Part shown: piece after piece, positions 11 to 13,918 of the stretch
Numbering within the stretch: position 1 is the stretch's first letter
Layout: each line of letters starts with the position of its first letter
Translations under genes and position numbers: made by a program
Source of the DNA: Nitrospirales bacterium
GTDB lineage: Bacteria; Nitrospirota; Nitrospiria; Nitrospirales; NS-4
Length of the DNA stretch: 40,797 bases
Direction of reading: 5' to 3'
Assembly (NCBI GenBank): GCA_030648395.1
Contig: JAUSHW010000185.1
Span: 1 to 40,797 of the forward strand
Notes under the pieces: generated by a model
The model's database searches: none
Told to the model about the DNA's origin: nothing
The model's input: the letters and a program-made list of their open reading frames with translations, nothing else

Positions 11-30
11 CTTGTCGCATTCACGACAAG
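11..30. promoter_or_regulatory. NifA-type upstream activator sequence (TGT-N10-ACA)
   Basis: CTTGTCG-cattca-CGACAAG palindrome containing TGT(13-15)-N10-ACA(26-28), overlapping the stop codon of the NifA-like gene; near-match TGT-N10-ACG at 33-48. Confidence 0.55.
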
Positions 31-1607
31 CCTGTCGTGTCCGGCACGAGCCGGTATTTGCGGATTTTGTAGGCGATTTGCCGGGGGCTGATCCCCAGAG
101 CGCGGGCGGCCTTGGCTTGGACCCAACCTGCGCGTTCAAGCGCTTTCTTGAGTCGGTCCCGCTCGATCGACTCCAGCCCGCCGGTCAGGGTATGGGCTTC
201 ATGGTCAGGGCCTGTCCGACTCACGTGCCGCATGTCTGAAAAATATCCACGTAACGTCATCGGAATGGTCCGGAGCGTCACGCTGTCCGCCTCAGCCATC
301 ACCACCAGCCGTTCGATGCAATTCTCCAGCTCTCTGACGTTTCCTGGCCAGTGATAGCCGGCCATTAATCCAAACAGCTCCGTTGAGAGGCGCACCGCAC
401 GGCGGTTCTGCTTGTTGTACTTTCGCAGAAAATGCCCGATCAGCAAGGGGATATCGCCGGCACGTTCCCGAAGCGGGGGGAGTGTGACCGGAACGACATT
501 GAGGCGATAATATAAATCCTCCCGGAAGGCCCCGCTTTTGACCATCGCCTCCAAATCCTGGTGCGTGGCGGAGATCAGCCGGACGTCCACCCCGTACGTC
601 TGATTCCCTCCTACCCGTTCAAAACGTTGCTCCTGAAGGACCCGCAGCAGCTTCACTTGAGTTGCGAGTGGGATGTCTCCGATCTCATCAAGAAAAAGCG
701 TCCCCTGGTGTGCGAGCTCGAAACGGCCCTTGCGCATCTCCGTCGCACCGGTAAAGGCTCCGCGCTCGTGGCCGAACAGTTCGCTCTCGAACAGCATTTC
801 CGGAACTGCGGCGCAATGTAACCGGATGAAGGGTCTTTCGGCCCTTGTACTACTCTGATGGATCGCTTTGGCAACAAGTTCCTTTCCGGTTCCGCTTTCC
901 CCCCGGAGCATCACTGTGGCCTGGCTCTGCGCAACTCTGGCGATCGCGCCAAAAACCTCTTGAATAGCGTGGCCCTCCCCGACAATGCCTCCCACTGATC
1001 GATGCGTCTCGCACAATTCATTCCGTGGTTCCTGGTCAGATGCGAGTCGTTCCTGGCGTTCCCGGGCGGTTAAGCGGTGGAGTTTGACTGCCTGGCCGAT
1101 CAGCAAAGCCACGATGCTTAAAACCCGAAGGTCCTCGTCAAAAGACCCGGGATCGCCAGAAAAAAGACAGTCCACGCCAAGTACCCCGAGAGTCTCGTCA
1201 TGGACCTTGATGGGGACAGCGAGAAAGGACAGTTGTTGGCCGACCACAGCCGTCCGGGCGCCGGTCCTGTTCAGAAACCTCCGGTCAGCGCGGAGATCAG
1301 GAACCACGATGGGCTTGCCGGTTTCGAATACCTTGCCCGTAATGCCTTCGCCAATGCGATAGCGCCCCCGCGCCTGTTCCTTCTGGCTCAGTCCATGAGA
1401 AACCTGGATCGCCAATTCCCCGCTGGCCGGATCGCGCAGCGTGATCGTTCCTCGCTTCATGGCGAGCCTCGAACTCAGCGTTGCCAGAACCTGTATGGCG
1501 CTTTCCTGGAGGTCTCGCGATGAGGCTAAGGCCGTGTTGATTTCGTAGAGCGCCGACAGTTCCTCACCAGTCCTCGCGGATGACCGGTGCGTGATATCCT
1601 CAACCAT
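21..1607 (-). CDS. NifA-family sigma54-dependent activator (GAF - AAA+ - Fis-type HTH)
   Basis: N-terminal GAF ([17 protein letters not shown]), Walker [22 protein letters not shown], Walker [19 protein letters not shown]-terminal HTH ([18 protein letters not shown]). Start moved to ATG 1607 because AAGGAG lies at 1613-1618. Confidence 0.9.
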
Positions 1608-1707
1608 TAGAACTCCTTGTACGGCGCTATGCGGGCGAACCTGATTATACGCCTGCGACTGCACCCGAGGATGCGGCACTGCATCCTCGGGTCAGAGACA
1701 CTTTGCC

Positions 1708-2046
1708 TTACAGCGCGAGCTCTCCGGACTCCCCGGTTCGAATCCGGACGACGTTCCCCAATGCCGTCACAAAAATCTTCCCGTCGCCGATACTGCCGGT
1801 CTTGGCCGTCCGGAGAATCGTCTCCACGACTTTATCCGCAAGATTGTCGGCGACGGCGACTTCTATTTTCGTTTTCGGCACAAACTCGACCGTGTATTCG
1901 GCGCCACGGTAGGATTCCTTCTGCCCTTTCTGTCGGCCGTATCCACGGACCTCGGTCACGGTCATGCCGTAGATTCCGATTTCGGTCAGGGCATCCTTCA
2001 CTTCCTCGAGTTTGAACGGTTTGATAATGGCCTCGATTTTCTTCAT
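1708..2046 (-). CDS. glnB: P-II nitrogen regulatory protein (amtB-linked; GlnB versus GlnK naming is ambiguous)
   Basis: 112 aa from [14 protein letters not shown]-loop GRQKG..YRGAEY with Tyr51; [16 protein letters not shown]. Confidence 0.95.
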
Positions 2047-2074
2047 GTGCGCGTCTCCCTTTCTCCCACAGCGG

Positions 2075-12505: not shown

Positions 12506-12612
12506 CATCGTCCATAAACAGAAACGGCGCCTTTCCCTTCACAGCGTAGGAGCCCCGCTACCGTGCTCCCAAAGGGAAAGACGCCGTCGTCGATTAGCAC
12601 ACCATCGTGCTA
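12500..12612 (-). promoter_or_regulatory. ANTAR-like hexaloop hairpins (G1/G4 variant) in the nadE leader
   Basis: TAGCAC-GATGGT-GTGCTA (12595-12612), GAC-GACGGC-GTC (12580-12591, overlaps the 5' arm of terminator 1) and GGAC-GATGAC-GTCC (12500-12513, overlaps the 5' arm of terminator 2). Confidence 0.7.
12516..12587 (-). terminator. Intrinsic terminator 1 (attenuator) in the nadE leader
   Basis: Minus strand ACGGCGTCTTTCCCTT...AAGGGAAAGGCGCCGT (16 bp with one G-U, structured 32 nt loop) followed by TTCTGTTT. Confidence 0.7.
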
Positions 12613-12617
12613 GGGGT

Positions 12618-12647
12618 CTTATACAGAACCTTTCCCCTGCATGTCAA
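12618..12647 (-). promoter_or_regulatory. Sigma70-type promoter for the nadE-amtB-glnA operon
   Basis: TTGACA (12647-12642), 18 bp spacer, TATAAG (12623-12618); the predicted start near 12611 coincides with the 5' end of the first hairpin. Confidence 0.7.
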
Positions 12648-12649
12648 GG

Positions 12650-13918
12650 CTATTTTCCCGCCACCCGCTTGTCGAGATCCCCGGCGAGCAGAATGGCCTC
12701 GGCAATCTCACGCATCGATCGTCGTGTATCCATGCTCTGACGCTGCATGACCCGAAACGCGTCTTCCTCCGTGATATGCTTGCTTCGCATGAGCTGGCCT
12801 TTGGCGCGTTCGACCAGCTTGCGCACCTCGAGCGCCTCCTGCATTTCAAAGGACTTCTCCATCAGGCTTGTATTCTCGATCGTGATCGCTGCCTGATTGG
12901 CGACTGCCTGCAGTATTTTAATTTCCTCAGCGGTAAACAGATGTTCGTTCGCCGTGTAGCTGTTAATGACTCCGATCGGCTTGTTTTTCACCAGCATGGG
13001 CACCGACAGCAGCGAGCAGAGTCCTTCTTTACGCGCCAGGTCCGGGTACGTATAGCCGGGGTCTTTCGTCACATCCAAAACCGCAATGGGACGGCGATCC
13101 TTGAGTGCGCGGCCGCTGATGCTTTGTCCGACCTTCAGGTTCGGCTTTCTGCGATAGCTCTCGCTCAGGCTCTGCGTGGCGGCGATGCGGAGTTCGTCAT
13201 GCTCCTGGTCCAGCAGCATGATCGAACAGATCGCCGACCCCATCATCTCCGCCGTCATGGTCACCAGAAGATGCAGGACTTCTTCCAGGAGACGCCCTGA
13301 CGTAATGGTCGCACTGACCTGGGAGAGCGTTTCGACCTGGCGGGCCTTGTGCGTGATTTCCGCATGGAGCCGGGCAGTCTCGATCGCGCCGCCGACCTGA
13401 CACCCCATCGTGGTCATCAGTGCAACCTCATCGGAACGATACCGGTGGGGCTGCTTGTGCTGAACGTTGATGACCCCGATCACCTCTCGTTTGGCGATGA
13501 TCGGCACGGAGAGGAACGCCTGGTGGCGGTCTTCGGGAAGGTTGTGGAACACCTTGAATCGGGGGTCGTCGCTGGCATTGCTGGCGATCGCCACGTGTGT
13601 CCCCTGCTGGGCCACCCATCCGGTAATCCCTTCACCAAGGCCCAAGCGGATGCGGCCGATCAATTTGGGATGAGGGTTCTGGGACGCCCTGAGGATGAGC
13701 TCATCCCGGCGAGGGGTCAGCAAATAGATGAAACAGGAGTCGGCCTTGGTCACCTCGACAGCGATCTCGACAATATCGCGCAGGACCGCATCGAGGTCGA
13801 GATTTCCGCTAACCGTTTCACTGACATGATGCAGAATCTCGGCTTCCCGCGTCTTGTCGCGGAGCGCACGCTGCAGAGCGGCGACCGACACCTGGCTCTT
13901 TTGCTTCATTCCGGCCAC
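12650..13918 (-). CDS. GAF-GAF-ANTAR one-component RNA-binding antiterminator
   Basis: Two tandem GAF domains (GEGITGWV..DPRF..LSVPI..IGVINV; GQSISG..LLSVPM..IGVIN) and C-terminal ANTAR (LEVRKLVERAKGQLM..TEEDAFRVMQRQSMDTRRSMREIAEAIL); GTG start with GAGGGGAG RBS. Confidence 0.92.
   Translation of the reverse strand: MAGMKQKSQVSVAALQRALRDKTREAEILHHVSETVSGNLDLDAVLRDIVEIAVEVTKADSCFIYLLTPRRDELILRASQNPHPKLIGRIRLGLGEGITGWVAQQGTHVAIASNASDDPRFKVFHNLPEDRHQAFLSVPIIAKREVIGVINVQHKQPHRYRSDEVALMTTMGCQVGGAIETARLHAEITHKARQVETLSQVSATITSGRLLEEVLHLLVTMTAEMMGSAICSIMLLDQEHDELRIAATQSLSESYRRKPNLKVGQSISGRALKDRRPIAVLDVTKDPGYTYPDLARKEGLCSLLSVPMLVKNKPIGVINSYTANEHLFTAEEIKILQAVANQAAITIENTSLMEKSFEMQEALEVRKLVERAKGQLMRSKHITEEDAFRVMQRQSMDTRRSMREIAEAILLAGDLDKRVAGK

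Follow-up and report, generated by a model that had tools for sequence, protein, structure and literature searches.

A GAF-GAF-ANTAR protein as a candidate antiterminator of nitrogen-assimilation genes in Nitrospirales

In soils, waters, and treatment plants, Nitrospira and its relatives oxidize nitrite, and some of them carry nitrification to completion; in the literature searched, there is next to no description of how these bacteria control their own assimilation of nitrogen. The window analyzed here is a 40,797-nt contig of a Nitrospirales genome assembled from a metagenome (92% complete). On its minus strand, a gene for a protein that combines two GAF domains with an ANTAR domain is followed by genes for NAD+ synthetase (nadE), ammonium transporters (amtB), PII proteins, PII uridylyltransferase (glnD), glutamine synthetase (glnA), and a NifA-like activator. 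What switches this run on? The GAF-GAF-ANTAR protein is likely a one-component RNA-binding antiterminator that controls a nitrogen-assimilation regulon, because a leader element is conserved at the predicted targets, its helices covary, element and protein occur together across genomes, the core of the element is identical to that of the site bound by GnfR in Geobacter sulfurreducens, and the layout recurs in Nitrospira moscoviensis and in a second Nitrospira genome. The proposed circuit is testable: it comprises one sensor protein and a short RNA element, its predicted targets are nadE, amtB, PII, glnD, glnA, nirC-nirA, and cyanase genes, and it appears to be present in the cultured N. moscoviensis. 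It would give the large GAF-ANTAR class its first assigned function and would mean that the RNA element bound by GnfR is common to different phyla, with the sensor module swapped.

Hexaloop hairpins and terminators in the nadE and amtB2 leaders

Ten co-oriented genes occupy positions 21-13918 of the minus strand, and all but one matched a family in Pfam and NCBIfam. An earlier note on this DNA, made from the letters alone, had read the same order from the GAF-GAF-ANTAR gene to the NifA-like gene; the family searches, including the Pfam scan that it called for, confirmed that order, and the gap between glnD and glnA was re-measured as the same 29 nt. From 5′ to 3′, the genes are as follows.

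12650..13918, minus strand: GAF-GAF-ANTAR one-component regulator, 422 residues (Pfam: GAF twice and ANTAR)
10692..12434, minus strand: nadE, glutamine-dependent NAD+ synthetase (Pfam CN_hydrolase and NAD_synthase; NF010588, 757 bits vs a cut-off of 479)
9708..10628, minus strand: secreted protein without known family, 306 residues (signal-peptide-like N-terminus)
8239..9597, minus strand: amtB1, ammonium transporter (Pfam)
7829..8167, minus strand: PII protein 1, glnK/glnB type (Pfam)
5130..7826, minus strand: glnD, PII uridylyltransferase (Pfam)
3673..5100, minus strand: glnA, glutamine synthetase type I (Pfam)
2075..3493 (open reading frame to 3538), minus strand: amtB2, ammonium transporter (Pfam; start placed 3′ of terminator T3, described below)
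1708..2100, likely start at about 2046, minus strand: PII protein 2 (Pfam)
21..1679, minus strand: NifA-family activator with GAF, sigma54 AAA+, and HTH_8 domains (Pfam; TIGR01817)

Apart from the leaders of nadE and amtB2, no gap of the run contained a terminator or a hexaloop hairpin that we could find, and therefore nadE to glnA looks like one unit and amtB2-PII2-nifA-like like a second.

The nadE leader has the organization of a tandem attenuator, with the following features.

12618..12647, minus strand: sigma70-type promoter, TTGACA (12647-12642), an 18-nt spacer, and TATAAG (12623-12618), read from the sequence
12595..12612, minus strand: upstream hexaloop hairpin of attenuator 1, UAGCAC-GAUGGU-GUGCUA (fold; close relatives keep the G at loop position 4, hereafter G4)
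12580..12591, minus strand: antiterminator hairpin of attenuator 1, GAC-GACGGC-GUC, overlapping the 5′ arm of T1
12514..12588, minus strand: intrinsic terminator T1, stem at about 12588-12523, then UUUCUGUUU (fold)
12500..12513, minus strand: antiterminator hairpin of attenuator 2 (P2), GGAC-GAUGAC-GUCC, overlapping the 5′ arm of T2
12448..12505, minus strand: intrinsic terminator T2, stem at 12505-12458, then UUUUUUCUUU (fold and covariation)

The promoter starts 3 nt past the stop codon of the ANTAR gene, and the nadE start codon lies 13 nt past the T2 element. None of 200 shuffled sequences folded as well as this leader (z = -6.9). T1 was overlooked by a simple terminator scan; its U-tract is weak in the source genome (UUUCUGUUU) and better in close relatives (UUUUUUGUUU), and the form GAC-GAYGGC-GUC of its antiterminator hairpin was also found at loci L006, L009, and L013.

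We then examined the conservation of the leader. Eighty relatives of the regulator were kept, all of them Nitrospirota-type records and among them that of N. moscoviensis (68% identity). Within the DNA examined, nadE was downstream of the regulator gene at 58 of these loci, and the 50 with an estimated ANTAR-nadE spacer of 100-1000 nt were used; the eight dropped had spacers that were too long (L023, L024, L027, and L046) or too short (L031, L034, L040, and L068). Exactly one GGAC-N6-GUCC hairpin, directly followed by a terminator, was present in all 50 leaders. In the 51-row alignment, the GGAC/GUCC stem, the loop G4, and the following U were invariant (51/51), and loop positions 2 (A) and 6 (C) were nearly so. 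The T2 helix was paired in 93.2% of cells, compared with 84.2% in shuffles and at most 54% with the pairing partners slid, and 47 cells were changed on both sides, compared with 17 in shuffles; on four of five measures, none of 500 shuffles reached the observed values. An upstream hexaloop hairpin with G4 was detected in 30 of the 50 leaders (18 expected), with a stem of at least 4 bp in 22 (8 expected), and the stems of these hairpins visibly covary around a GAC...GUC core. Upstream of the element, a sigma70-type promoter was found in 36 of the 50, against 0.1 expected from shuffles. A covariance model, R1, built from this alignment scored the T2 element of the window at 45.8 bits (E = 1.7e-10).

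The features of the amtB2 leader are listed below.

3636..3663, minus strand: strong GC hairpin 3′ of glnA, perfect over 12 pairs and without a U-tract (fold)
3607..3626, minus strand: hexaloop hairpin Pa, GGCUCGC-AAUGGC-GCGGGCC (fold and covariation)
3576..3593, minus strand: hexaloop hairpin Pb, CGGGUC-AUCGUC-GACCCG (fold and covariation)
3546..3561, minus strand: antiterminator hairpin Pc, CUGGC-AAUGGC-GCCAG, core GGCAANGGCGCC, overlapping the 5′ arm of T3
3514..3556, minus strand: intrinsic terminator T3, a 15-pair stem at 3556-3523, then UUUUUUAUU (terminator scan and fold)

Again, no shuffle among 200 folded as well (z = -6.1). The leader is kept in 10 more genomes of the same family, and a 12-row alignment, A3, served for comparison; one candidate, L130, matched the query weakly and in another part and was dropped, being read by eye as coding sequence. 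Both sides had changed in 8 of the 18 hairpin pairs, compared with 2.4 in shuffles, and in 6 of the 7 pairs of Pa; the G4 of Pb (12/12) and the whole of Pc (CUGGC-AAKGGC-GCCAG, 12/12) were invariant. T3 was paired in 97.9% of cells, compared with at most 50% with partners slid. Covariation also links the 3′ arm of T3 to the third loop base of Pc, and this is direct evidence, at the level of sequence, that the Pc hairpin and T3 would compete for the same bases. Upstream of these hairpins, the hairpin at 3636-3663 could be a processing or stabilizing element or a weak terminator; no promoter was recognized between it and the leader hairpins.

Thus, the three terminators read in the earlier note, each overlapped by a hexaloop hairpin, were borne out by sequence and folds, and the conservation that it proposed to look for was found in both leaders. 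The leaders also resemble known ANTAR targets, which are defined as a pair of hairpins, each with a hexaloop bearing A1 and G4 on a stem of 3 bp or more, the second overlapping a terminator (Ramesh 2012, PMC3369931). The nadE and amtB2 leaders, and the nirC leader described below, agree with this definition in stem length, loop size, and a downstream hairpin that overlaps a terminator. Every loop has its G4; A1 is seen in the amtB2 leader and in most relatives, and the nadE leader of the source genome has G at that position. The same source describes hits to this definition as clustering upstream of genes for PII, ammonium transporters, and glutamine synthetase.

The position of the hairpins bears on whether the regulator, once bound to the hexaloops, would act mainly on translation or on the stability of the RNA, a mode put forward for ANTAR targets in mycobacteria. 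Actinobacterial targets are described as overlapping start sites and repressing translation (bioRxiv 10.1101/660928). In the present leaders, by contrast, each antiterminator hairpin overlaps a canonical covarying stem with a U-tract, and the terminators stop 13 to 30 nt short of the start codons instead of covering them; we regard a mainly translational or stability effect as highly improbable.

A third leader on contig C115 and the place of sigma54

Positions 1-141 of the window are identical to positions 12528-12668, the last 141 bases, of another contig of the same genome (G000:C115), and 39 residues encoded at that end of C115 are the C-terminus of the NifA-family protein of the window. 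Because of this identity and the shared C-terminus, the run very probably continues onto C115 in the order nifA-like gene, sigma54 promoter, ANTAR leader, nirC, and nirA. The C115 leader, at about 12330-12238, has a UGGC-AAAGGC-GCCA hairpin with a terminator after two further hexaloop hairpins and precedes nirA and nirC, a formate/nitrite transporter gene of the FNT family. A sigma54-type promoter, TGGCAT-N5-TCGCA, is located at 12424-12409, 5′ of the nirC leader. Where the earlier note had counted two checkpoints, before nadE and before the second amtB, there are three leaders with four terminators when C115 is included, the nadE leader being a tandem attenuator.

We searched the whole genome for further sites of this type. 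A permissive scan for [A/G]NNGNN hexaloops over terminators gave 334 hits and was too noisy to use. Requiring a second qualifying hairpin left 37 sites. By eye, an intergenic position and AAWGGC-type loops were combined at just three of them, two in the window and one on C115; the other sites were taken as chance matches in coding sequence, a judgment made by eye and not by a statistic. The core GGCAANGGCGCC occurs at 3548-3559 of the window and at C115:12265-12276, each time with a terminator; the 12-mer alone is unspecific, with 12 matches in the genome.

The same core links these leaders to GnfK/GnfR of G. sulfurreducens. GnfR, a REC-ANTAR protein, was shown to bind CAGGCAANGGCGCC overlapping terminators in the nifH, glnK, and amtB leaders (Ueki and Lovley 2010, PMC2995071), and the core of this site, GGCAANGGCGCC, is identical in the amtB2 and nirC leaders. 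In that system as well, an ANTAR protein relieves premature termination in the leaders of nitrogen genes (glnK and amtB among them), and the bound leaders lie downstream of sigma54 promoters, GnfR acting on top of the sigma54 activator GnfM; the nirC leader on C115 has a corresponding layered arrangement. The systems differ in three respects. GnfR is a REC-ANTAR response regulator driven by a histidine kinase, whereas the protein here is GAF-GAF without REC and without a partner kinase; the nadE leader has a sigma70-type promoter; and the predicted regulon, that of a non-diazotroph, covers nadE, glnD, glnA, nirA, and cyanase genes and not nif genes. With E allowed up to 1, R1 missed the amtB2 leader, and it scored the nirC leader at E = 0.29, and the assignment of both therefore rests on alignment A3 and the GnfR comparison.

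The sigma54 promoter leads to the question of whether the ANTAR switches, if real, are fine-tuning added to an NtrBC-type circuit, with main nitrogen control by sigma54 and an NtrC-like or NifA-like activator. The genome encodes nine REC-sigma54 (NtrC-like) activators, rpoN lies in the window, a NifA-family activator is encoded inside the regulon, the nirC leader has the TGGCAT-N5-TCGCA promoter upstream, and Geobacter offers the precedent of GnfR layered on GnfM. None of the nine activators, however, reached the NtrC cut-off (best, 450.9 vs 558.6 bits), although one of them may still act as NtrC despite these scores. A scan with TGGCAC-N5-TTGC, allowing up to 2 mismatches, gave no match in the minus-strand gaps of 21-13918, as the earlier note had stated for -24/-12 promoters, and its statement that ntrBC genes are absent from the window also held. 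The nadE-glnA unit has a conserved sigma70-type promoter instead, and ANTAR terminators precede glnA, glnD, amtB, and PII alike. Compared with NtrBC/glnAp2-type control in Proteobacteria, the targets are alike (glnA, amtB-glnK, and nitrite assimilation), whereas NtrBC acts at initiation via sigma54, and here neither an NtrC equivalog nor a -24/-12 promoter for the nadE-glnA unit was found. We consider a mere fine-tuning role unlikely. The earlier wording that control is exerted "rather than" by NtrBC nevertheless claimed too much, given the nine NtrC-like regulators and the sigma54-type promoter before the nirC leader.

The gene at the downstream end of the window run (21-1679) scored 577.6 bits with TIGR01817 (NifA), above the cut-off of 528.85, in agreement with the sigma54 activator predicted at this place. 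No nifH gene above the cut-off turned up in the genome, and the NifA-family activator would therefore have to act on targets other than nif genes, the adjacent nirC-nirA promoter being an obvious candidate.

Two side observations concern this part of the genome. The rpoN gene, at 22002-23474 of the window on the minus strand, is about 8 kb upstream of the regulator gene and is the single rpoN match of the genome. Next to nirA, at about 6000-9800 of C115, there are two divergent open reading frames (L082 3-1532, minus strand, and 1563-3809, plus strand); both carry GlnE and GlnD_UR_UTase domains, one also an ACT domain, and they may be extra PII- or glutamine synthetase-modifying nucleotidyltransferase paralogs within this island.

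Joint distribution of protein and RNA element in Nitrospirota

A total of 121 Nitrospirota genomes were scanned with both R1 and the regulator protein. Within the order of the source genome, R1 matches were found in 17 of 17 genomes bearing an ortholog (1 to 5 matches each, best E at most 5e-6) and in none of 8 genomes without one. All 8 of the latter are 99% complete, and no ANTAR domain at all was present in any of the 5 that were tested for it. These 8 genomes (G028, G035, G042, G049, G069, G088, G091, and G121) were among the 11 sampled of a Nitrospira-type genus.

The element was also observed in other gene contexts. In N. moscoviensis, the nadE element consists of TTGACA-N17-TATAAA followed by GGGGAC-AAUGGA-GUCUCC and GGAC-AAUGAC-GUCC. 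Two tandem elements lie 3′ of glnA, before an operon for an NMT1_2-family binding protein (nrtA/cynA-like), an ABC ATPase, and cyanase (cynS), and a hairpin-terminator element precedes amtB. In a second complete Nitrospira genome, elements are located before nadE, after nadE, and twice before nirC-nirA. As judged from these sequences, N. moscoviensis has the same regulon. In a different class, where the orthologs (47-50% identity) are still next to aroB, two complete genomes have a sigma70-type promoter, then a related element, AGAC-AAGGGC-GUCU with a terminator, and then glnA; in G020/L117, the one genome compared, a nifA-like gene (44% identity homolog) follows glnA.

Some features of gene arrangement could instead suggest that the terminators are controlled by a metabolite-binding RNA, another RNA-binding protein, or constitutive attenuation, with the adjacency of the regulator gene incidental: in the distant class the regulator gene is tied more closely to aroB than to nadE, and in N. 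moscoviensis an 11-kb urea island parts the two. Against this, the element fits both the ANTAR target definition and the GnfR site, and protein and element are jointly present or absent (17/17 vs 0/8). The regulator is the single ANTAR protein found in the genome, and Rfam shows no riboswitch, with no match at gathering thresholds and only chance-level matches of E > 3 at permissive thresholds in positions 1-14500. We therefore hold control by another factor to be improbable.

With regard to the arrangement itself, the order aroC-aroB-regulator (13957-16299 of the window, minus strand) is kept in the distant class, at 47-50% identity, without nadE being adjacent (L112-L114), and hence the link of the regulator to aroB is older than that to nadE. 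In N. moscoviensis (L019 5267-9257), the island between the regulator gene and nadE measures about 11 kb and encodes a urea transporter and urease; a spacer of 335 nt separates the regulator gene from urtA, and no hexaloop/terminator element was found in it.

The regulator protein and the proposed mechanism

The regulator has two GAF domains and no REC domain (Pfam), and its gene neighbors are aroB and nadE. The ANTAR domain (PF03861, residues 359-410) scored 71.7 bits, compared with a cut-off of 27.3, and matches PDB 1s8n, 6wsh, and 4akk. A search with the PF03861 profile gave one match in the source genome, 92% complete as it is, so that this is the sole ANTAR gene found. In EutV, G4 flips out and stacks on Tyr164, with contributions from K143 and K147 (Walshe 2022, PMC8934654). 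These residues, K143, K147, and Y164, align with K367, R371, and F388 of the regulator, among which K367 and F388 are invariant and R371 is nearly invariant in 31 orthologs. As in the dual-hexaloop targets of EutV, NasR, and AmiR, the loops carry G4 and the second hairpin excludes an intrinsic terminator, and the aromatic residue that stacks on G4 in EutV is kept as F388. The differences lie in the sensors (REC, NIT, or the AmiC partner there, GAF-GAF here), in loop position 1, which here is often G, and in the presence of three hexaloop hairpins or tandem attenuators in two of the leaders.

GAF1 most resembled the GAF domain of PtsP/EI-Ntr (NCBIfam, 4e-40; PDB 3ci6 and 3trc), and GAF2 the N-terminal GAF domain of NifA (NCBIfam, 2.3e-27). 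In several diazotrophs, the latter domain serves as an entry point for 2-oxoglutarate or PII signals. The PtsP GAF domain binds glutamine, which inhibits the enzyme (PMC4848567). The output differs from that of PtsP and NifA, being predicted RNA binding and not phosphotransfer or ATPase control. By analogy, the leading candidate for the signal is glutamine and/or 2-oxoglutarate sensed via the PtsP-like and NifA-like GAF domains, with input via PII as an alternative route. Because all targets are needed when nitrogen is scarce, the regulator is predicted to bind RNA when glutamine is low or 2-oxoglutarate is high. The regulator gene lies 38 nt after aroB and has no hexaloop/terminator leader of its own; the protein is probably made constitutively and switched after translation.

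We propose the following mechanism. Transcription of nadE to glnA would begin at the sigma70-type promoter just 3′ of the regulator gene and by default would halt at the two successive intrinsic terminators of the nadE leader. When the regulator is active, probably under nitrogen limitation, its ANTAR domains would bind the hexaloops with the invariant G4. The downstream hairpin of each pair takes up bases of the 5′ arm of the terminator, and its stabilization would allow RNA polymerase to read through. The same switch would gate the amtB2-PII2-nifA-like unit and, combined with the sigma54 promoter on C115, nirC-nirA. What is observed is a set of sequence elements that are conserved, covary, and occur together with the protein; RNA binding, the direction of regulation, and the signal are inferred. 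The earlier proposal that the adjacent regulator gates the run by antitermination has thus gained strong comparative support, apart from its exclusion of NtrBC and its count of checkpoints.

A wider role can be entertained more tentatively, as a possibility that may well not hold: the GAF-GAF-ANTAR protein would be the master nitrogen regulator of Nitrospirales in the role of NtrBC, sensing glutamine/2-oxoglutarate directly, with tandem attenuators sharpening the response, the NifA-family tier licensed by it, and an AND gate at nitrite assimilation.

Several observations weigh against the antitermination mechanism. The stems of P2 are invariant, which leaves this antiterminator hairpin without support from covariation, and the three nadE-leader loops of the source genome begin with G and not with the consensus A. 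The upstream hexaloop hairpin was undetected in 20 of the 50 nadE leaders, mainly in one clade with very short leaders, and no convincing promoter was found for the amtB2 unit in the source genome. R1 was trained on leaders of the same genome group, and its positive hits are partly circular; the eight genomes lacking both protein and element belong to one genus and may reflect a single loss. R1 missed the diverged elements of the other classes. It had no match in the one genome of family f4 or the 13 of family f14, although the f4 genome and all but one of the f14 genomes (12 of 13) carry orthologs, and the f14 sites were found just by pattern search and eye, in 2 genomes. Finally, the candidate ligand was suggested solely by the likeness of the GAF domains.

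As to precedent, Ramesh 2012 (PMC3369931) points out that no GAF-ANTAR protein had been characterized at that time. Ramesh 2012 Tables S1/S2 aside, literature searches for ANTAR or antitermination together with Nitrospira and related taxa returned nothing relevant, and those for ANTAR with GAF, nitrogen, or hexaloop returned general ANTAR and GnfR papers and no characterized GAF-ANTAR regulator. Public annotations name the family just "GAF domain-containing protein" or similar. Hence, the novelty suggested earlier stands for the GAF-GAF sensor form, the lineage, and the Nitrospirota regulon, which are undescribed in the literature searched, and not for the concept: ANTAR control of nitrogen genes, including those for PII, amtB, and glutamine synthetase, is already established (Ramesh 2012; Ueki and Lovley 2010).

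Some details of the gene run remain to be given. The ATG of amtB2 at 3538 falls within T3, and the start is therefore probably near 3493; similarly, the Pfam domain of PII protein 2 starts at residue 19, which places its start probably near 2046. The genes 5′ of the regulator, aroC, aroB, and pilQ (NCBIfam), are not nitrogen genes. The protein encoded at 9708-10628, for which no Pfam or NCBIfam family was matched, likely starts at the ATG at 10592, which has a ribosome-binding site before it, and its C-terminus reads ...LDINF. Its nearest Atlas clusters are unnamed and come from Nitrospirota and Thermodesulfobacteriota. It is possibly an outer-membrane beta-barrel and may be an outer-membrane channel for ammonium; its place before amtB is kept in many relatives.

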